This document shows positions 2,633 to 50,024 of a stretch of 64,000 nucleotides of DNA, in pieces (position 1 is the first letter of the stretch; each line of letters opens with the position of its first letter). Both the position numbers and the translations under genes were made by a program. The stretch lies in the NCBI GenBank assembly GCA_032117235.1, contig JAULZW010000001.1, positions 10,762 through 74,761 of the forward strand, given 5' to 3'. Source of the stretch: Minisyncoccota bacterium. GTDB lineage: Bacteria; Patescibacteriota; Minisyncoccia; SW-4-49-11. The notes beneath the pieces were generated by a model that was not told the origin of the DNA, did not search any database, and saw only the letters and a list, made by a program, of their open reading frames with translations.

Positions 2633-2904
2633 TTTTGTCCTCCTTTGGAGGAGGTGGCACGAAGTGCCGGTGGTGGATAAAGTTGAAGTCAAAGTTTGTT
2701 TTATAATAAGATTTAATTTCAAAGTATATTTTTCTGACCATCCACCCTCCCCGTCGCAAATGGGATTTACTCCTGTGAAACCTCACGGTTTCCCAACCTT
2801 CCTTCACGGGAAAACTACCGTTTTCCCGACCCCTTTCCCAAACTTTCAGTCTATTACGGGTACTCCCTCCGCCTGCCTGCGGTAGGTAGAAAGGGAGACA
2901 AAAT
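2633..2904 (+). repeat. GC-rich structured repeat element, copy A (about 270 bp). The termini are imperfect inverted repeats (TTTTGTCCTCCTTTGGAGGAGG ... CCTCC..GGGAGACAAAAT).
   Basis: A high-GC island in AT-rich DNA. About 85 percent identical over the conserved cores to copy B at 27211-27458. It contains multiple internal hairpins (GGCAC-GAA-GTGCC, GAAACC-TCAC-GGTTTC, CGGGAAAAC-TAC-GTTTTCCCG). Confidence 0.6.
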
Positions 2905-3064
2905 ACAGGCGACTGAAAGCTTAGTCCTACGATGTTGATAGATGTTCGGTAGAGGGTTTATACTCACACAAATATAGACAAAAGCTTAAAAATATGATAT
3001 GTTTCTGATTGTCCAGGCTCTAAAGTGATTTAGAGTCAAACTTCCACCCTGAGGAGTGCTTTTT

Positions 3065-3499
3065 ATGGATGATTCAGTACCAAAAACTGAAGGATACGAT
3101 GATAGGCCATATTCTCTTTTAGCTCTCATGCTCGGGTTAAGTCCAGATAACTGCTCTAAATTAATCGGTATCATTGAAGAGTCTGGAGGAGATAAAGCAG
3201 AAGCACTTTTAATATTTTTAAGCCGTATCTTTAGAGAGGGTTTAGATATAACAATAGAAAATTTCGAAATAACTTTGGGGTATATTAAGCAAGTTAACTA
3301 TGCTGTAGAACAAAAGGAAGTAGAATATGGAAGACCACTGATCGTAAAAGAAATGCAAGAGATAATAGGTGCAGAACATGATATAGCACCAGAAGAAGAT
3401 TGGCTAGACCCTGAAGGCTTTATTGATGAACCAGAAGGCGATCCTAACACCTTAACTTTAGAAGAAGAAGTTATTTTGGGAATAATCTTTCATCCTTAG
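3065..3499 (+). CDS. Hypothetical acidic protein, about 145 aa.
   Basis: ORF with a GAGGAG Shine-Dalgarno about 9 nt upstream of ATG 3065. The ORF track starts it at a GTG at 3056. A strong terminator follows. Confidence 0.5.
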   Translation: MDDSVPKTEGYDDRPYSLLALMLGLSPDNCSKLIGIIEESGGDKAEALLIFLSRIFREGLDITIENFEITLGYIKQVNYAVEQKEVEYGRPLIVKEMQEIIGAEHDIAPEEDWLDPEGFIDEPEGDPNTLTLEEEVILGIIFHP

Positions 3500-6154: not shown

Positions 6155-7926
6155 TAAACTTATTACCAAAACATATTATAAATCAAATTGCTGCTGGAGA
6201 AGTAGTAGAGAGACCAGCTTCAATAGTTAAGGAATTACTAGAAAACTCCATAGATGCTGGATCTACTGAAATTCAAATTGAAGTATTAGATGCGGGCTTA
6301 ACTGAGATTATTATAAAGGATAATGGCTCTGGTATTGAAAAAGATGATTTTGAAAATTTATTCAAAAGGCATGCTACTAGTAAAATTGAGAAAATAGAGG
6401 ATTTACATCGATTATCTACAATGGGATTTCGAGGGGAAGCTTTATCAAGTATTCAAGCTGTATCACAAGTGGAATTAGCTACCAAAACCAAATCAGATAA
6501 AACCGGCTATTTTTATAATCCTCATATAAAAGAAATAAAAGCAATATCCAAGGCTAATACTGGTACAAATATAACGATAAGGAATCTGTTCTACAATGTT
6601 CCCGCCCGTAAAAAGTTTCTTAAAAGTAATGTTACCGAACTAGCCCATATTACCAAAATTATAGAGGAAATTGCTTTAGCTAATCCAAATATTACTTTTA
6701 TTTATCAATCTCAAAATCGTGAATTAATCAATGTAAAAGCTAGTGACTTGCTCACTAGAACTGTTAATATACTAAAAATCAAAAACCCAGAATACTTGTT
6801 ATTATTGGACTCCCAGAAACATAATATCAAAGCCATAGGTTATATTGGACATCCTAGAATTTCTAAAAAATCACCTCAATATCATATTTTCATCAATAAT
6901 CGCCCTGTTATGCAACCTCTCATAAATAAAGCTATTCAACAAGGTTTTGACACTATGTTAGAAGTGGGTCATTATCCGTTTGCTTTTGTATCTATTTTTA
7001 TCCCTCCAACTGAACTAGATGTGAATGTTCATCCAAGGAAAACTGAAGTAAAATTTATAGATGATAGAGATATTTTTCAGACTATCAAGTATTTAATTCG
7101 TGATACTTTACAAAAATCTGCTTTTGAAGTGGTCTTAAAACCACAAACTGCTCAATCTAATAAAATATCAATCAATTCAAGCACCAATACATCCAATACT
7201 AAAAACTATAACTTTAAGCCGTATAATCACCCTAGCAACACATATAATAAGCCTCAAGTCACCGAGATGAATTTAGCTCAATATGCTCCCAAACAAATAC
7301 CAAAAAATCAATATAATTTTCATAACATACAACCAAACTTTAGAGAGTTATTAGAAGCTGAAACACAAAAACCTAATTTCTTACATATTTTTGACACTTA
7401 TATAGTCTATCCCAATCAAAACGGAATAATGATTTTAGACCAACATGCAGTACATGAGAAAGTTATTTTGGAACAATTGATGAATCAAAACTCTAATATT
7501 TCTTCTCAAGTCCTATTATTCCCAATAGCAATTAGTGTAATTCAATCTCAAAAAGATTTAGTAATTGAAATATTAGCTGAATTACCAGGCTTTGAAGTAG
7601 ACGACTTTGGAGCTAGTGAGATTATAATTAGAGCCTTACCAAATTTTTTAGCTGAAACTCAAAAAGTAGAAGAGCATATAAAAACCCTCATCGCTCAAAT
7701 CCAAGACAGAGGTCAGACTATAGAATTGTCAGAATTAAGAATAGAATTGCTAAAGACTATAGCCTGTAAATCAGCTATCAAAGCTGGATATAGTATTAAC
7801 CAACAAGAAATAGAAGCTTTAATCAAAGATGTTTCTAAAACTAATTTTGGTTTTGCCTGCTGTCATGGAAGGCCAACTATGGTACAATTAGACAAAGACT
7901 GGTTCGAAAAACAATTTTCAAGATAA
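6151..7926 (+). CDS. mutL: DNA mismatch repair protein MutL.
   Basis: 591 aa. INQIAAGEVVERPASIVKELLENSIDAG is the GHKL ATPase N-terminus. The start overlaps the mutS stop (ATGA). Confidence 0.95.
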   Translation: MINLLPKHIINQIAAGEVVERPASIVKELLENSIDAGSTEIQIEVLDAGLTEIIIKDNGSGIEKDDFENLFKRHATSKIEKIEDLHRLSTMGFRGEALSSIQAVSQVELATKTKSDKTGYFYNPHIKEIKAISKANTGTNITIRNLFYNVPARKKFLKSNVTELAHITKIIEEIALANPNITFIYQSQNRELINVKASDLLTRTVNILKIKNPEYLLLLDSQKHNIKAIGYIGHPRISKKSPQYHIFINNRPVMQPLINKAIQQGFDTMLEVGHYPFAFVSIFIPPTELDVNVHPRKTEVKFIDDRDIFQTIKYLIRDTLQKSAFEVVLKPQTAQSNKISINSSTNTSNTKNYNFKPYNHPSNTYNKPQVTEMNLAQYAPKQIPKNQYNFHNIQPNFRELLEAETQKPNFLHIFDTYIVYPNQNGIMILDQHAVHEKVILEQLMNQNSNISSQVLLFPIAISVIQSQKDLVIEILAELPGFEVDDFGASEIIIRALPNFLAETQKVEEHIKTLIAQIQDRGQTIELSELRIELLKTIACKSAIKAGYSINQQEIEALIKDVSKTNFGFACCHGRPTMVQLDKDWFEKQFSR

Positions 7927-8863: not shown

Positions 8864-9130
8864 TTTTTTGTCCTCCTTTGAGGGAGGTGGCCTTTAGGCT
8901 GGAGGTGGACTGAGCTAATTCCCCTCTCGAGGGGTGGACAGCTTTGCTGGACGGGGTGGATTGTTTTGGCCTTTGAGCTTCTGTATTTTGTCTCCCTTAG
9001 GAGGGAGTACCCGCAGGGGGAGGGTGGAGTACTATTTAATATATTTTTCCACCCCTTCTCCCTCCTAAACAAAGTATAGAAGGGAGACACCCCTCAAGAG
9101 GGGAATTTTTAGCTCACAAGCCCCTCCACC
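8864..9130. repeat. GC-rich structured repeat element, copy C. A composite, more diverged copy.
   Basis: It has the 5' module TTTTGTCCTCCTTTGAGGGAGGTGGC in direct orientation. It also has an inverted copy (8985-9013) of the A/B 3' module (ATTTTGTCTCCCTTAGGAGGGAGTACCCG). Two CCCCTC-N2-GAGGGG palindromes are present. Confidence 0.5.
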
Positions 9131-24868: not shown

Positions 24869-26728
24869 TTACCAGCTTCCGCCACCTCCTCCGCCACCGC
24901 CTCCACCAGATGATCCACTGCCAGATGAGCCGCTACTACTATCACTAGTGTTGGGCGATGACATTAGAGAAGATGTTGCGAAGTAACTAAAATTGTTCAT
25001 TGATTGGCTTAGAGTAATTGTGCTAAAAGTTGTTCTAGAGTTTCCTGAATACCAAGTCGGAGGCATTGTATATATTTCTTTAAATTCTTTTGCCCAAATA
25101 TCGGCAACTCCTAAAACCATTGCATAGGGTAAAAGTTTTTCAAAAACCTCCGGCTTTTTTTCTGGGGCATTGTGAAATTTAATACGGTTCTTTTCAGCGA
25201 CCTGTAGATATTCTTTAAGACCAAGAATATACTCTTTTGTTATGGCTCCTTTTTTTGTTTTTGAAGAACTAAAGTTATATATTAGATTATAGATTATAAT
25301 TGAAAAGAATATTCCTACTATCAATGGGAACGGGTTGTCTTTAAAAAGTAAAAATCCTAAAATACCACCAATAAATAAAGAAGCAAATACTGATATCACA
25401 ATCATTGAAAATATATCCAAACCATTTTTTATTTGTCCTAAATTTCTGTAATAACCTTTGTTTAGGAGTGAATCTAGAACTGAAGTCACTATAGTTTCCA
25501 CATTTCGGTAGAATACATCTTTCAAACTAGAAAGTTTTATAGATTGATATTGACTAATAGGATGAGTTTCAACAACAGGGTTACGACCTTGAAATATAGC
25601 CTTTAAGTTAAGGGATGTTGTATTAGGTTGAGTATTAAATAAACTATTCAACAGCTTTTGATCAAAATCGTTTGGAAGAGTAGAGAAATCTTTTAGTCTT
25701 GTAAGTTCGAAGTCAGTGAATTTTATTAATCCAACAAATCGCTCTTCCATTTGGTGAATTTTAAGATATCCTTTAGTTGCAAGATAAATTATCTCAGCAG
25801 AAATATCACTATTATCTAACTTCTCTTTAGCAATAGTACCAACTTCTATAGGTGTGAGATTATCAGGAGCATCATATTGGGGCACTATTATACCTGTACC
25901 ACGCTCATCACGCCCTTTTTTATGCCAATTTAATAAAGAAAATATGAGAGTTAATATTGGCAAGGTTCCAGCAATCAACCAACGCCAATATTTGTCAAAA
26001 AAATTAGACTCTGAATATTGAGACACAACAGTAATATCTTCCTGAAAATTAGACTCTGAATATTGAGACACAACTCCTTTTGGAAAACCTACAGCAACAG
26101 TAATACCTTCCTGTGGATTAAGAACAGCTGTAGTATTGAATGAATAAATGTTTTCATAGTAGGATGTCTGGCATTTGTCTTTACTTCCTTTAAGGCCATA
26201 ATAACATTCTGATTGAATCACATTAACCCCATAAGGTAATCTTACTGAAGCTTTTGCTTGGTATATAGGAAGATTCCATTCATCACCAGTCACATTCCAA
26301 TATATCTCATCTAAGTCTTTAAGCTGAGCAATTGCATTTGTCGCTTTGTATTTTATAATATAAACTTTTTGCCCAAGAAATGCTATATCTGGATTTCCAA
26401 TTTTTATCTTGATACTATCTTTAGAATCAGAAGTTTCAAATTCATAAGGATCACCTTTCTCATCTTTTACGGTAATATTTTCAATAGACATTCTTCTTTC
26501 TTGAGAAGAAATAGTAGCTATATCTCGATAAATACCACGACGTTTCTCAGGACCTGTATTATATGTGATTTGCTCTGTTACATCTATAGAATTATCTATA
26601 TTTACAACAATGTCGGATATATAAGAGATAATAGACTCTTCAGGAACAACATTTTGTGCTACTACACTATTAAAGTTAAGCCCTAAGGTCAAAATATAAG
26701 TTAATAGTAACAAATAAATTTTCCCCAT
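24869..26728 (-). CDS. Secreted or membrane protein (DUF2207-like?) with a C-terminal Ser/Gly-rich tail ending in poly-Gly-SW.
   Basis: 619 aa with an N-terminal signal peptide, two internal transmembrane segments, and a C-terminus ...SSGSSGSGSSGGGGGGGGGGSW. The DUF2207 assignment is from memory of that family's architecture and is uncertain. Confidence 0.5.
   Translation of the reverse strand: MGKIYLLLLTYILTLGLNFNSVVAQNVVPEESIISYISDIVVNIDNSIDVTEQITYNTGPEKRRGIYRDIATISSQERRMSIENITVKDEKGDPYEFETSDSKDSIKIKIGNPDIAFLGQKVYIIKYKATNAIAQLKDLDEIYWNVTGDEWNLPIYQAKASVRLPYGVNVIQSECYYGLKGSKDKCQTSYYENIYSFNTTAVLNPQEGITVAVGFPKGVVSQYSESNFQEDITVVSQYSESNFFDKYWRWLIAGTLPILTLIFSLLNWHKKGRDERGTGIIVPQYDAPDNLTPIEVGTIAKEKLDNSDISAEIIYLATKGYLKIHQMEERFVGLIKFTDFELTRLKDFSTLPNDFDQKLLNSLFNTQPNTTSLNLKAIFQGRNPVVETHPISQYQSIKLSSLKDVFYRNVETIVTSVLDSLLNKGYYRNLGQIKNGLDIFSMIVISVFASLFIGGILGFLLFKDNPFPLIVGIFFSIIIYNLIYNFSSSKTKKGAITKEYILGLKEYLQVAEKNRIKFHNAPEKKPEVFEKLLPYAMVLGVADIWAKEFKEIYTMPPTWYSGNSRTTFSTITLSQSMNNFSYFATSSLMSSPNTSDSSSGSSGSGSSGGGGGGGGGGSW
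26000..26074. repeat. In-frame 45-bp tandem duplication inside the CDS (two exact 30-bp copies).
   Basis: aaaattagactctgaatattgagacacaac occurs at 26000-26029 and again at 26045-26074. It encodes the repeated peptide VVSQYSESNF. Confidence 0.8.
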
Positions 26729-26856
26729 AAATTCTTAAGTGTTTATGAAAAAAATATTTTCCGCCTTAGCTTTTATCAATAATTTATTTATATTTACAGC
26801 TTTACTTAGTATATATACTAGAAGCATTATTTTATTTTTTATTTAATAATTATAGT

Positions 26857-26944
26857 TGGTGGGCAGAGTAGGACTCGCACCTACGTAGCCTGAAAAGGCG
26901 TCGGTTTTACAGACCGATGCGTTTGACTGCTCCGCCATCTGCCC
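26857..26944 (-). tRNA. tRNA-Tyr, anticodon GTA, class II. The CCA is encoded.
   Basis: The reverse complement GGGCAGATGGCGGAGCAGTC... folds with anticodon stem-loop TCGGT-CTGTAAA-ACCGA, a long variable arm, and T-arm GGTGC-GAGTCCT... ending in CCA. Confidence 0.88.
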
Positions 26945-26977
26945 CAATGTACATACATTATACCATAGATATTCCTA

Positions 26978-27053
26978 TGGAGCCGAAAAGAGGATTTGAA
27001 CCCCCGACCTACCGCTTACAAGGCGGTTGCTCTACCAGCTGAGCTATTTCGGC
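26978..27053 (-). tRNA. tRNA-Thr, anticodon TGT. The CCA is encoded.
   Basis: The reverse complement GCCGAAATAGCTCAGCTGGTAGAGCA... folds with anticodon stem-loop CCGC-CTTGTAA-GCGG, T-loop TTCAAAT, acceptor GCCGAAA/TTTCGGC, and discriminator T followed by CCA. Confidence 0.82.
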
Positions 27054-27210
27054 TATAAAATATAAAGTTACAATTGTATAATGCACTTTATCAAATATAT
27101 CACAATTTTAATTTTTTGTCTATTGTTTGTAATAGATGAGATGATCGTAGACAAATTGCAAAATAAAAAGTTAAAGGATGGAAGGAACACATAAAGTATT
27201 ATATAATTCA

Positions 27211-27458
27211 CTGTCCTCCTTTGGAGGAGGTGGCACGAAGTGCCGGTGGTGGATAATTAGTAATTTATACGTTAGATTTATGCTTGGATATCTTTTCAAT
27301 CTATACTCTGTCCACCCTCCCCCGTCGCAAATAGAATTTGCTCCTGTGAAACCTCACGGTTTCCCAACCTTCCTCCACGGGAAAACTCCCGTTTTCCAGA
27401 CCCCTTTCCCAAAGGCTAAAGCCTTTTTACGGGTACTCCCTCCAAAGGGAGACAAAAT
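27211..27458 (+). repeat. GC-rich structured repeat element, copy B (about 250 bp).
   Basis: Shares an identical 42-nt 5' module (CCTCCTTTGGAGGAGGTGGCACGAAGTGCCGGTGGTGGATAA) with copy A. A long near-identical core (CCACCCTCC..CGTCGCAAAT...CCTGTGAAACCTCACGGTTTCCCAACCTTCC..CACGGGAAAACT.CCGTTTTCC.GACCCCTTTCCCAAA) and the same 3' terminus (GGGAGACAAAAT) are also present. Confidence 0.6.
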
Positions 27459-27507
27459 AAATTTCAATTTTAAATTTTTGTCTATTGTTTGGGACATAAG
27501 AATCTAT

Positions 27508-28932
27508 CTAATTGTTAGGAGGTGGGGGAGTAGTCTCAGGAGTGGGAGTATCGAGTTTATCTATATACTCTAAATCATCATCTGATATTCCTAGTTGATC
27601 TAATATATAAATATGTCTACTGTTGCTAGGGTCGTATTTCCCAACAGAAAACCTCATCATTTCATCAGGATTATTTTTTATTACATCCCAAACCCCAATA
27701 TTTCCCTCTCTATATATCATATCCTTTGTAAAACAAACACCTGCAGTTTTACAATCAGTTCCTCTAAAAGTTCTAATACATCTATTCCAAGCATTATTTT
27801 TAGAACTAATACTGGCTTCTTCGGGTGATTTTTTTGCTCCAAGAGCTTTAAAATAAAAATATTTTTCTAATACCTCATAAGTTTCTCTAAAATCTCTTTT
27901 TTTACCATCTAACCCCATTGCTAAACTTATAGCTAAATGTCCTTCTAAGCCAGAAAAATCATTTACAGAAGATTTGAGAACTTGTTCTCTCATTGTAGCA
28001 ACCCCTTCCTCTCCTTGTTCATAACGATCTAAACCTAGACTCAATAATCTTAATTGAGTATTTTCACCATTAACTCTTCTAGCAACATGAGTCCCCACTT
28101 CATGTACGAGTAAAGATTGTAGCCTTGTTTTGGATGGAAGCACTCTAGATTCAGGTATAGTAACATTTTTCTGCTCCTGATTTGTACTAATTGATGTACT
28201 ATTATCTACTGTAATTACCTCCCAACCATCTGCATTTGACTCTCTTAATGCTTCTTCAAAAGCATTTCTTATAGAATTAGAATCATACTTACCATCTTCT
28301 AGGGGTATATTTAAAATACTATCAAATTCTTGTTTAGTTTTTACTCTTGCTAATTCTACAGTATCATCGGAAGGAGTAGATATATCTGGATTAGTGGTTT
28401 CAATATCCAATTCACCTAGTGTTTGCATTAATATCTCGGCAGATGCCTTAATGTCTGGATTATCAGAATTTAAAGCCTTACTTATTTTGTTATTTAGATT
28501 ATACATAGTATATTTAAAAACTTCATCTGAGGGTTTTCCATAAATATACTTAGAATATCTTTCAAATCTTCGCATATCTCCATTATGTGAAGATTTCATC
28601 ATTCTTAACTCTGCAATTTTTTCATTAATTTTCCAGCTATATACATTACGAACTATCTCATTAGTCTCCTGCTCTAAAATATCTTGTTTTAACTGCATTA
28701 AGCTAGACTCAATATTGTTAATTGTTTCTATATCTAGCAAAGGATAGTCTAAATCAGGATTTTCTATTTCTCCACTAAGGAAAGCTTCCTTTTGAGTGTT
28801 TCTAGCACCTGCTTCTCCATTGAAGTACTCATAAGCTTGAAAAGATCCAATTTCTTCAAATCTATTATACCAATTATCATCGAGAGATTCAGACTCGAGT
28901 TTTTGTGATGTTTGGTGTTCTAGATTTGTCAT
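27508..28932 (-). CDS. Putative Zn-metallopeptidase of the DUF1704 / QEGLA-motif family (HExxH).
   Basis: 474 aa containing LLVHEVGTHVARRVNGE (HExxH) followed by ...YEQGEEGVATMREQ (QEGLA-like). This family is known to sit beside RimK-like ATP-grasp ligases. Confidence 0.5.
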   Translation of the reverse strand: MTNLEHQTSQKLESESLDDNWYNRFEEIGSFQAYEYFNGEAGARNTQKEAFLSGEIENPDLDYPLLDIETINNIESSLMQLKQDILEQETNEIVRNVYSWKINEKIAELRMMKSSHNGDMRRFERYSKYIYGKPSDEVFKYTMYNLNNKISKALNSDNPDIKASAEILMQTLGELDIETTNPDISTPSDDTVELARVKTKQEFDSILNIPLEDGKYDSNSIRNAFEEALRESNADGWEVITVDNSTSISTNQEQKNVTIPESRVLPSKTRLQSLLVHEVGTHVARRVNGENTQLRLLSLGLDRYEQGEEGVATMREQVLKSSVNDFSGLEGHLAISLAMGLDGKKRDFRETYEVLEKYFYFKALGAKKSPEEASISSKNNAWNRCIRTFRGTDCKTAGVCFTKDMIYREGNIGVWDVIKNNPDEMMRFSVGKYDPSNSRHIYILDQLGISDDDLEYIDKLDTPTPETTPPPPNN

Positions 28933-30860: not shown

Positions 30861-31835
30861 ATGGAATTAAGTATTTTTCTCAGACCAATTATTGAAGAAG
30901 CAGAAAGTAGAAATATACATTGTTATGTTTTTTCAGATGTTAGTAAAAATTATGCGGTTTTAAGATATAATGATCATGAGGAGTTTATCAACAATACATT
31001 GATAGATAATATAGGTGCAGCTACTAATTCAATGTTAAAAAATAAATACCTCCAATCAGTGTTACTGAGTCAAAAAGGATATAGTACCCCTAAGACTCAA
31101 ACAGTGTATTTAGAGAAGTCCAAGAGAGATGAATTTATCCAACAATTTAATCAATTTCCCTGTGTGGTCAAGCCATTAGATAATTATGGAGGGAAGGGAA
31201 TTACTGTAAATATTACAAACCATAGTGATTTAGAACAGGCAATAGAGTTGGCTTGTGGTATGAGCAATAGATCTAGATATAAAGATAGATGTATAGTACA
31301 GGAAATGCTTCAAGGAGAAGAGTATAGAATTTTAGTAATTGGCAATAAAGATGTATTCTTAGTCAAGAGAACCCCTTTTCAAGTTATAGGAGATGGTAAA
31401 CACTCAATACAAGAGTTGATTCAAATTTATAATGAAAATACAATTAATAGTATAAGGAAGGTAGAAATAGGCTCTAGTATAAAGCATATATTACAAGAAA
31501 AATCTCTAGCATTAGATTATATACCTCAAGATAAAGAAATTATCAAGTTAAGTTATAAAGCCAATTCTCATGATGGGGGATCTTCTCAGGAACTGACTGA
31601 TTTTTTACCAGAAGGACTGAAGCAATTTGCAATTAGACTATCCTTAGATTTTAAATTACCAGTTGTAGGAATTGATATTATAACTTCTAATCTTGTCAAT
31701 CTAAATCCATACATTCTGGAGCTCAATATAAATCCAGGGTTAACAATACATAATAACCCAACATTTGGAGTACCAACTAAGCCTCAAAAAGCTATTATTG
31801 ATCTTTTATTCCCAGAGACAAAAAAATTTAAATAA
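30861..31835 (+). CDS. ATP-grasp domain ligase, cyanophycin-synthetase-N-domain/RimK-like. Paralog 1.
   Basis: CVVKPLDNYGGKGITVNI...EYRILVIGNKDVFLVKRTPFQVIGDGKHSIQELI...ANSHDGGSSQELT...VVGIDIITSN...LELNINPGL. Confidence 0.7.
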   Translation: MELSIFLRPIIEEAESRNIHCYVFSDVSKNYAVLRYNDHEEFINNTLIDNIGAATNSMLKNKYLQSVLLSQKGYSTPKTQTVYLEKSKRDEFIQQFNQFPCVVKPLDNYGGKGITVNITNHSDLEQAIELACGMSNRSRYKDRCIVQEMLQGEEYRILVIGNKDVFLVKRTPFQVIGDGKHSIQELIQIYNENTINSIRKVEIGSSIKHILQEKSLALDYIPQDKEIIKLSYKANSHDGGSSQELTDFLPEGLKQFAIRLSLDFKLPVVGIDIITSNLVNLNPYILELNINPGLTIHNNPTFGVPTKPQKAIIDLLFPETKKFK

Positions 31836-31847
31836 TTATACCGCTAT

Positions 31848-32822
31848 ATGAAATTGAGTATCTTTCTCAGACCAATTATTGAAGAAGCAGAAAGTAGGGG
31901 TATAGATGTATCTTTTTTTTCTGAATTTCGTACAAGGTTTACAATATTATCATATGAGGGACATACAGAGTTTATAAGAAATACATTAACAAATCATGTA
32001 GGTTCGGTTACTAGTTTAATGTTAAAAAATAAATACTTTCAATCAGTTTTATTGAGTCAAAAAGGATATAATACTCCCAAGACTCAAATAGTGTATGTAG
32101 AGAAGTCTAAGAAAGATAAATTTATCCAAAATTTTAATCAATTTCCCTGTGTGGTTAAGCCTTTAGATAACTATGGTGGAAAAGGTATTACTGTAAATGT
32201 TACAAATTATACTGATTTAGAAAAAGCAATTGAACTTGCTTGTGGTATGAGTATTAAATATAAAGATAAATGTATAGTACAGGAAATGGTTTATGGATCT
32301 GAAGAATATCGAGTGTTGGTAATTGGGAATAAAGATGTGTTTTTAGTTAAAAGGACTCCATTTAGAGTTATTGGAGATGGAAAACATTCAATTCAAGAAT
32401 TGATTAAAATATATAATGATAATGTGGTTAAAGTAGACAAAACAAGATATGTTCAGATAGGAGAAAGTATAATGAATATCTTACAAGAAAAGTCTCTAAA
32501 ATTAGATTATATCCCTAAAGATAAAGAAATTATAAAACTAAGCTATAAAGCTAATTCACATGATGGTGGGTCATCAGAGGAGATGACTAAATTTTTGCCA
32601 GATACATTAAAACAATTTGCTATTAAATTATCTCTAGATTTTAAGTTGCCAATTGTGGGCATTGATATTATAACTTCGGATATAAACAATCCTAACCAAT
32701 GTGTTTTAGAGTTAAATCTTACTCCAGGATTGAATATACATGTAGCTCCGACATTTGGAACACCAACTAAGCCTCAAAAGGCTATTATAGATCTTCTATT
32801 TCCAGAAACCAAATCGATATAG
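31848..32822 (+). CDS. ATP-grasp domain ligase, paralog 2. A tandem duplicate of 30861..31835.
   Basis: Same length (324 aa) and about three-quarters identical to paralog 1. The first dozen residues are nearly identical and there is a long identical DNA stretch at the 5' end. Confidence 0.7.
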   Translation: MKLSIFLRPIIEEAESRGIDVSFFSEFRTRFTILSYEGHTEFIRNTLTNHVGSVTSLMLKNKYFQSVLLSQKGYNTPKTQIVYVEKSKKDKFIQNFNQFPCVVKPLDNYGGKGITVNVTNYTDLEKAIELACGMSIKYKDKCIVQEMVYGSEEYRVLVIGNKDVFLVKRTPFRVIGDGKHSIQELIKIYNDNVVKVDKTRYVQIGESIMNILQEKSLKLDYIPKDKEIIKLSYKANSHDGGSSEEMTKFLPDTLKQFAIKLSLDFKLPIVGIDIITSDINNPNQCVLELNLTPGLNIHVAPTFGTPTKPQKAIIDLLFPETKSI

Positions 32823-49803: not shown

Positions 49804-49876
49804 AGCTTTATTATTACTTTACTAAGTATAATTATACCATAAAATTAGCTTATTTTCAAGGATTGGGGGGTGATTT

Positions 49877-49900
49877 ATCCTCCAAAGGAGGACAATTTTT
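49877..49900. repeat. Solo copy of the repeat-family terminal palindrome (ATCCTCCAAAGGAGGACAATTTT).
   Basis: TCCTCCAAAGGAGGA is a perfect palindrome matching the TIR module of elements A and B (CCTCCAAAGGGAGACAAAAT). Confidence 0.4.
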
Positions 49901-50024
49901 ATTCTGATTTGCTGTTATTAGACTGGGAATATATATCCTTTTGTCTACGATTTACTCATCTCGTACATAATATTGTGTGATTGAGAGAGAGGTGATATAC
50001 TAAAATTAGATTGAATATAATTGT

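Follow-up and report, generated by a model that had tools for sequence, protein, structure and literature searches.

What is the GC-rich island that separates a peptidase gene from a tRNA operon in this genome, and does its conservation serve the host or the island itself? In the window (the whole stretch of 64,000 nucleotides analyzed here), positions 27212–27454 form a GC-rich repeat, copy B, with 45% G+C against a window mean of 33%. The initial annotation described it as a repeat with terminal inverted repeats and nearly identical cores kept by selection, and raised the idea of a bidirectional terminator or insulator. We consider it rather likely that copy B is a non-autonomous, MITE-like mobile element belonging to a new MITE/BIME-like modular repeat family and that it is selfish DNA. 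Copy B itself is probably immobile or disabled now.

Copies A and B in the window

Repeat finding and direct alignment revealed a second copy, A, at 2635–2905, whose orientation and modules match those of B, as first described. The inner terminal inverted repeat of B is 16 nt long and 88% complementary. Shuffled sequences gave an expectation of zero motif matches for the B and A modules, so the matches found are far above chance. Aligned by segment, the two copies are identical at 45/45 positions of the left module, at 88 of 94 positions of the 94-nt core segment, and at 32/32 positions of the right end, except for a 19-nt mini-hairpin insert present in A only. The AT-rich spacer is identical at 35/62 positions (56%), close to the 39–48% given by forced alignment of unrelated flanks, and the variable hairpin at 3/11. 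The difference in conservation between GC modules and spacer is highly significant (Fisher p = 9e-13), and the earlier observation that differences are concentrated in the spacer and one hairpin was borne out. The variable hairpin does differ between the copies, but the version in A is not a GC palindrome, as had been claimed: the counterpart of GGCT-AA-AGCC in B is AAACTTTCAGTCT, a decayed form of the family hairpin AGACT-TTC-AGTCT. The extra GC palindrome of A (GCCTGCCTGCGGTAGGTAG) is located in the loop of the right-end hairpin.

In total, the window holds two core copies and two partial clusters in 64 kb. Apart from B, the related segments are as follows:

2635..2905, plus strand: copy A, with the same inner GC element as B, left arm missing
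2906–2950: decayed REP-like module and right-arm remnant after copy A
8866..9113, strand not assigned: third cluster of related GC hairpin modules, with a variant of the left GC module, an inverted right end and other modules; no core
49876..49967, plus strand: fragment with the mini hairpin ATCCTCCAAAGGAGGAC followed by the outer right repeat TTGTCTACGATTTACTCATCTCGTACA

The last fragment has the YebC/RuvC genes on one side and, downstream of it on the other, a small ORF and a PIN-domain gene.

Gene context of copy B

The genes next to copy B are the following:

26857–26944, minus strand: tRNA-Tyr, after tRNA-Thr
26978..27053, minus strand: tRNA-Thr (tgt), the first gene downstream of the promoter beside B
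27508..28932, minus strand: MATCAP-family carboxypeptidase gene, with its stop codon 16 nt from direct repeat copy 2

Copy B is therefore not at the 3′ ends of convergent genes, as the initial annotation had it, since the minus strand carries tRNA-Tyr, tRNA-Thr and the peptidase gene alike. Its neighbors are the stop codon of the peptidase gene on one side and the tRNA-Thr/Tyr operon promoter on the other. This promoter runs on the minus strand from 27122 down to 27094 (TAGACA, 17 nt, TATATT with a TG; 10/12 match) and is the sole good promoter found in a scan of the B region.

Two further observations concern the surrounding genes. The DUF2207 membrane-protein gene contains a perfect 30-nt direct repeat with a spacing of 45 nt (26000–26074), which yields an in-frame duplication of 15 residues (VVSQYSESNF...). 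Farther along, the two neighboring 324-aa ATP-grasp genes at 30861–32822 are tandem paralogues, with 73–80% nucleotide identity over 300-nt blocks.

Parts of copy B

The inserted unit is larger than the 27211–27458 initially assigned to it: comparison with the copies in L012 and L013 and with an empty site gives 27130–27454. From left to right, copy B and its flanking repeats consist of the following parts:

27093..27129, minus strand: direct repeat copy 1; the working tRNA-Thr promoter, chromosomal target DNA
27130..27211, plus strand: left AT-rich arm, starting with the outer terminal inverted repeat (TG)TAATAGATGAGATGATCGTAGACAA
27212..27254, plus strand: left GC module (Lmod), with the inner end TGTCC, hairpins La and Lb, then GGTGGTGGAT
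27214–27228: hairpin La, within Lmod
27232–27244: hairpin Lb, GGCAC-GAA-GTGCC, within Lmod
27255..27309, plus strand: AT-rich spacer, a hypervariable loop whose length and sequence differ among copies
27310..27323, plus strand: GTCCACCCTCCCCC, the 3′ half of a long-range stem and the 5′ half of the hairpin that holds the core
27324..27426, plus strand: core, 103 nt, an optional nested module with four hairpins
27327–27341, 27345–27366, 27378–27399 and 27411–27426: core hairpins H1, H2, H3 and the variable H4
27427..27454, plus strand: right GC end, TTACGGGT and then the hairpin ACTCCCTCC-AAA-GGGAGACA
27455..27491, minus strand: direct repeat copy 2, derived by decay from a duplicate of the tRNA-Thr promoter region; the -10 box now reads TTTATT

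The left arm is 88.5% identical to L013 6900–6995, a non-orthologous site. The outer-repeat motif occurs twice in the window against 0.02 expected, and right-hand repeats matching the left outer repeat of B are present in L012, L013, L023, L026, L031 and L038. B has kept only this left outer repeat; the canonical outer right repeat is absent from its right side. Within the GC-rich part, GGTGGTGGAT of Lmod is able to pair with 27311–27317, and the right-end hairpin is the inner inverted-repeat partner of 27212–27227. In units without a core, CCACCCTCCCCC and TTACGGGG are contiguous, and folding predicts the same pairing for 27310–27323. Across loci, Lmod occurs in 55 distinct versions.

A probable insertion with an unusual flanking duplication

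The B site was compared with its counterparts by tracing the peptidase orthologues and reading their contigs. In L043, L044 and L047–L049 (79–89% protein identity), the peptidase gene is followed by 51 nt and then the RNase H gene, which in the window lies 2.9 kb further from the peptidase gene. The whole segment 24633–27507 (tRNA-Lys, the DUF2207 gene, tRNA-Tyr, tRNA-Thr and B) is missing from these five relatives. In L045, whose peptidase is 78% identical, 85 nt separate the peptidase gene from tRNA-Thr, tRNA-Tyr, tRNA-Lys and RNase H, and there is no element. L045 lacks the DUF2207 gene as well, and its three tRNAs are present.

Alignment reveals that a single segment of L045, CAAACAATAGACAAAAATTTAAAATTG(TGATATATTT), corresponds to two copies in the window, 27093–27129 on the tRNA side and 27455–27491 on the peptidase side, with 325 nt of inserted DNA (27130–27454) between them. 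Repeat finding identifies the same pair as 37-nt direct repeats with 89% identity. Comparison with the arms in L007, L012 and L013 shows that the first 13 nt of repeat copy 2 match the family right arm and that the remainder is chromosomal. The junction was confirmed by an independent sequencing run, whose contig ends inside the element at 27432, a break that is expected of a repeat in short-read data. This short contig was also the sole result of an exact look-up of the peptidase.

Judged by this alignment, copy B appears to be an insertion that is absent from the close relative L045. The flanking duplication of 27–37 nt is longer than the 5 bp seen elsewhere in the family. Two origins fit: an insertion with an unusually long target duplication, or a normal insertion with a 5-bp duplication (TTGTT), followed by conversion of the right arm to the sequence of the similar promoter 362 nt away. 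L045 could also have lost the element by recombination between direct repeats, in which case it would not represent an ancestral empty site. All three amount to presence/absence polymorphism. A simple 5-bp duplication for B itself was rejected because an additional deletion or gene-conversion step is needed. Single-crossover integration of a circular form was rejected because the predicted junction is mismatched, which follows from the 7 chromosomal nt upstream of TAGACA being duplicated as well.

L025 offers another example of a small GC insert enclosed by a long target duplication, at about 6460–6640 and in the region orthologous to copy A. There the 3′ end of tRNA-Leu, its terminator and approximately 40 nt more (about 105 nt in total) are duplicated around a 66-nt GC-hairpin insert.

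Distribution of the repeat family

A 22-nt word from the core was scanned against one genome per prokaryotic species. It was found at 16 true loci in five species-level MAGs labelled Candidatus Paceibacteria or Parcubacteria; a 17th match, in a GC-rich Eisenbacteria contig, was rejected as a chance match. A gapped pattern anchored outside the 22-mer added 24 loci in freshwater metagenome contigs. In all, about 46 core copies were located, 90–96% identical, in at least five Paceibacteria species genomes and in metagenome contigs, with eight copies in a single MAG. The non-repeat DNA of these loci has no nucleotide similarity to the window, and the copies are therefore not orthologous. As far as it has been sampled, the family is restricted to freshwater Paceibacteria/Parcubacteria.

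Rfam returned only tRNAs and noise, with gathering thresholds on the whole window and with E values up to 10 on 27050–27550. Full-text literature searches gave no description of interspersed repeats in candidate-phyla-radiation bacteria or in this phylum. The family is previously undescribed. Viral contigs contained neither the core 22-mer nor the outer repeat. Two Lmod-like matches were obtained among them, of which L050 alone is convincing. In this IMG/VR contig (48% G+C), the Lmod look-alike TGTCCTCCTTTGGAGGAGGTGGCGCGAAGCGCCGGAGGAGGAT at about 880–940 has a further compensated Lb stem and adjoins a GTAG-hairpin. It is possible that such a viral-class contig provides a route for spread between species.

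Layered anatomy of the family

The inner GC unit, TGTCC...GGAGACA, is 118–135 nt long and built of hairpins. Its parts are arranged in the order TGTCC; La; Lb; GGAGGTGGAT; a variable AT-rich loop; ATCCACCCTCCCCC; TTACGGGG; and the hairpin ACTCCCTCC-AAA-GGGAGACA. Where the 103-nt core is present, it lies exactly between CCCCC and TTACGGG, that is, within a hairpin loop, and it is missing from otherwise identical elements in the L028 array, L023 5205–5503, L024 and L026. Small hairpins, CCTGCCTGCGGTAGGCAGG and CCCTCC-TAAATAAATATA-GGAGGG, occupy loops of La, of Lb and of the hairpin at the right end, and a 100-nt module is nested inside H3.

The inner GC unit shows no target duplication at its own ends. 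Outside it, the AT-rich arms end in inverted repeats of about 27 bp, TG...CA, in L012, L013, L023, L026, L031 and L038. The left outer end reads TG(T/A)AT(G/A)AGATGAG...ATCGT(C/A)GACAA and the right outer end TTGTCTACGAT...CTCATCTTATTCA. Just outside TG...CA, perfect 5-bp direct repeats occur in three of nine copies, L023 (ATTTT), L038 (ATATA) and L012 (ATATT), and L026 matches at 4/5 positions. The chance of a perfect 5-mer match is estimated at about 0.002 per site; three perfect duplications are very unlikely to arise by chance in this composition. Elements measure 325–450 nt. Taken together, the sequences compared suggest a family built in layers: arms, an inner GC unit and optional nested hairpin modules.

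A REP-like module, GTAGGGGCGACC-TTTCA-GTCGCCTG (GTAG and then a GC hairpin), has 38 copies in the compared sequences, in both orientations. It often lies beside GC elements but is no part of B. A decayed copy occurs at 2906–2935 of the window, and the module is also found in a relative without element B (L043, at 7391 and 7574).

Some units lie within open reading frames. L028 9938–11264 consists of at least ten tandem 135-nt core-less units with 94% matches. The array continues the reading frame of the type IIG restriction-modification-like ORF upstream of it and contains no stop; a single unit is shorter, at 129 nt, through an in-frame 6-nt deletion. In L015 the same restriction-modification-like gene runs into an element. 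An uninterrupted ORF also crosses B (27178–27573, 131 aa, plus strand), and together with the units of L028 and L015 that are in frame with an upstream gene, it could be taken for a real gene. We find this reading hardly credible. There is no equivalent ORF through copy A, the open frame varies between copies, and what the copies share is nucleotide sequence, interrupted by indels whose lengths are not divisible by three. Moreover, stop codons are expected to be absent from GC-rich DNA in an AT-rich genome. The coding reading was rejected.

Position of the left end relative to promoters

In nine of the ten copies with a left outer repeat, the start of an outward-facing sigma-70-type promoter is found 5 nt from that repeat. 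In L038 (TTGACA-16-TATAAT) and L031 (TTGACA-18-TATAAT) this promoter matches the consensus at 12/12 positions, and in L013 and B at 10/12. Two filled/empty pairs indicate that the -35 box belongs to the chromosome and not to the element. In the first, the tRNA-Thr promoter is present without the element in L045. In the second, the promoter of the 46095–46868 gene is element-free in the window, and its orthologue in L038 has the element alongside. The element thus lands next to existing promoters. The -35 hexamers, read on the element strand (TTGTCAA/TTGTCTA), are similar to a motif inside the element's own end repeat, which suggests that this likeness may contribute to target recognition.

Evidence of mobility at other sites

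Turnover is evident at other sites. L040 and L042 are syntenic with 11.4–24.2 kb of the window; beside tRNA-Leu(tag), they carry elements in opposite orientation at different points of the intergenic region, and the window has none. The site orthologous to copy A in L025 holds a core-less, reversed element. The cluster at 8866–9113 and its orthologue at L025 12747–13300 lie downstream of the same gene and differ in modules and in length (250 versus about 500 nt). The L025 cluster includes a truncated, reversed piece of core. The presence/absence polymorphism that the initial annotation associated with a selfish element was thus found, with L045 empty and L038, L040 and L042 filled.

Just downstream of copy A, the segment 3056–3499 resembles a swapped gene cassette. 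Here and at L025 ~7020–7400, the promoter/leader (TAGACAAAAGC...CCCTGAGGAG) and the terminator (CCCCCCCGCGTGCGATGCGGGGG) are both conserved, but the ORFs that they enclose are unrelated. The window ORF at 3056–3499 has no Pfam match.

The position of the copies bears on whether they serve the adjacent genes. REP, ERIC, BOX and Correia elements are capable of cis-acting roles, and B may similarly be a domesticated RNA or DNA element whose GC hairpins, at the 3′ end of the upstream gene, block read-through or stabilize the mRNA and shield the downstream promoter. Such a role agrees with the position of B and of most copies with arms, exactly in the interval that runs from a gene's stop codon to the promoter of its co-directional downstream neighbor. 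It is also consistent with a fold of B far more stable than that of shuffled sequences (z = -5.2 and -4.7 for the plus and minus strands, respectively), with the constraint on the GC modules described below, and with G·U mismatches that favor the G-rich strand, which is the transcribed strand at B. Nevertheless, we regard such a role as unlikely. Orientations are mixed: 12 copies are co-directional with their neighbors on the G-rich strand and 6 on the C-rich strand, 6 lie between convergent genes and 6 between divergent genes, and copy A is opposite in sense to its neighbors. Close relatives lack the element at the same locus, modules turn over rapidly at orthologous sites, and some copies are inside or fused to ORFs. 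Furthermore, a scan of 26700–27700 for intrinsic terminators (GC hairpin and T run) gave no sites on either strand, whereas the genuine terminator after tRNA-Leu (2573–2588) was detected as a positive control. The proposed function as a bidirectional terminator or insulator thus finds no hairpin-plus-T-run signature in B, and copies occur in every orientation.

Constraint and hairpin structure

Within one subfamily of shared architecture, pairwise identity falls from 97.5% in the left module to 94.5% in the core, 91% in the spacer, and 85.5% and 82.5% in the two arms. The arms thus evolve about three times faster than the GC modules, even though GC-rich sequence should be the quicker to decay in an AT-rich genome.

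Hairpin Lb provides the clearest record of compensated change. Its stem occurs as GGCAC/GTGCC, GCCCC/GGGGC, GGCC/GGCC, GTCAC/GTGAC and GTCGAC/GTCGAC, and as GGCGC/GCGCC in the viral contig, and three of its five pairs show double changes. The covariation score is 0.263, compared with 0.138 in shuffles (0/500) and at most 0.079 in slid controls. RNAalifold on 21 cores gave almost invariant stems with one compensated pair, so covariation is uninformative there. Variant core forms are nevertheless compensated, in H2 (G-C to T-A) and H4 (AGACT/AGTCT, AGACC/GGTCT, AAAGGC/GCCTTT). H5 shows a compensated change from CTCCC/GGGAG to CCCCC/GGGGG, and compensated changes also affect an optional extra hairpin. 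Stem mismatches are mostly C·A on the C-rich strand, which correspond to G·U on the G-rich strand (16 versus 1–5, from few independent events). These patterns argue that the structural constraint on the GC-rich modules is real and that the modules are probably read on one strand.

Across species, the core is near-invariant even in segments predicted to be unpaired (36 distinct copies), which is more than hairpin recognition alone would need. This raises the possibility that the core and its flanking hairpins are a structured non-coding RNA gene on the G-rich strand, present in many copies. The core would then be a functional RNA cargo, serving either as a mobilization cofactor, for which transposon-encoded guide RNAs are the model, or as a lineage-specific regulatory RNA of Paceibacteria. 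The four hairpins closed by the stem CCCCGT/ACGGGG, the compensated H2, H4 and H5 forms with the optional extra hairpin, and the G·U-biased mismatches on the G-rich strand agree with such a gene. We nonetheless hold it to be doubtful. The core has no Rfam match, is optional within the family and has no linked protein gene, and most of its pairs never vary. No convincing promoter leads into the G-rich strand, and the promoter-like right arm has a defective -10 box (TTTATT). If the reading were true, an RNA cargo combined with placement 5 nt upstream of -35 boxes would make the family a promoter-seeking, RNA-carrying transposon and not junk.

The claim that the GC-rich modules are under constraint and are not decaying neutrally is upheld. 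Uneven conservation (97.5% in Lmod against 82–86% in the arms) and the covariation of Lb support it. Given the presence/absence polymorphism, however, the selection can be for the element's own mobility.

A probable selfish, non-autonomous element

The reading of copy B as a selfish mobile element can be outlined as follows. Arms with TG...CA inverted ends would insert with duplication of 5 bp, placing the left end 5 nt upstream of a resident -35 box. In this manner, B would have entered the intergenic space between the peptidase gene and tRNA-Thr/Tyr, beside the tRNA-Thr promoter. Later it may have lost its outer right repeat, or it may have arisen via recombination with the promoter-like target. 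The conservation of the GC modules is likely caused by structural needs of the element itself, with hairpins read in single-stranded form during mobilization, and the modules would be maintained because active master elements are copied again and again. That they have a dedicated function for the host is less likely. The absence of the outer right repeat and the long duplication count against a mobile reading of B, in that they do not correspond to textbook cut-and-paste transposition.

The family has several features of MITEs: its members are small, occur in many copies per genome and contain no conserved ORF. No outer-repeat pair encloses a gene in 52 sequences (~400 kb), and a Pfam search of ten window proteins near repeats gave housekeeping genes only and no transposase. 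A tblastn search with an IS200 TnpA sequence gave a weak match in L018 that proved spurious and one match in L024 that Pfam confirmed. This sole transposase found in the compared sequences is an IS200-like Y1 gene at L024 3226–3775 (133 aa, Pfam Y1_Tnp E = 1e-39), flanked by direct hairpins CCCCGCC(C)-TTTTAA-GG(G)CGGGG that are unlike the family modules. The contig with this gene also holds two copies of the repeat family. The comparisons themselves show a repeat family, its modular build, insertion polymorphism, target duplications, adjacency to promoters and covarying hairpins; the transposition mechanism, the kind of enzyme and the lack of a host function are inferred from them.

Significance and relation to known systems

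The genomes of candidate-phyla-radiation bacteria are tiny, and the usual description is that they contain little mobile DNA. The present family shows that their scarce intergenic space can be colonized by layered, hairpin-built repeats that move between promoters. Such repeats break short-read assemblies and can pass for RNA genes or terminators; copy B should accordingly be annotated as a repeat or mobile element and not as a regulatory feature. The fixed -35 position, the structure-preserving hairpins and the in-frame array offer handles for tests of transcriptional rewiring and of an encoded RNA in organisms not yet grown alone.

The family resembles the Correia elements, the MITEs of Neisseria, which likewise have many copies, little length and no coding capacity. 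Terminal inverted repeats and short target duplications (in the family, perfect in three of nine copies) are found in both, as are an intergenic, promoter-associated location, strong hairpins in RNA or DNA, and insertions that differ between relatives. In contrast to the TA of Correia elements, the family has a 5-bp duplication and TG...CA ends, and its interior consists of nested GC-rich hairpin modules in an AT-rich genome. Its left end is set 5 nt away from a -35 box that was already there, whereas Correia elements supply the promoter themselves. The host is a candidate-phyla-radiation bacterium, and no parent insertion sequence is known.

With the REP/BIME elements of E. coli and the REPIN-RAYT system, the family shares mosaic clusters of GC palindromes that are intergenic, occur in both orientations and are more conserved in structure than in sequence. 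The accompanying module GTAGGGGCGACC-TTTCA-GTCGCCTG even has the GTAG-plus-hairpin form typical of REPs. The modules of B, however, lack GTAG; they exceed REPs in length, are nested and have inverted repeats at their boundaries. A RAYT gene between family repeats was not seen, and the hairpins of the Y1 gene in L024 differ.

Streptococcus pneumoniae BOX elements are also modular (A-Bn-C), with a variable number of modules, a predicted stable folded transcript and an intergenic location near gene starts or ends. Their sequence is unrelated, and their modules are concatenated, whereas those of the family are nested in hairpin loops within an element bounded by terminal inverted repeats. Finally, the GC clusters of yeast mitochondria and the Rickettsia palindromic elements are, like the family, mobile GC palindromes in AT-rich genomes that insert into one another. 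They occasionally insert in frame into genes, which recalls the L028 array fused to the restriction-modification ORF. They differ from the family in hosts and sequences and have neither outer AT-rich arms with terminal inverted repeats nor promoter-proximal targeting.
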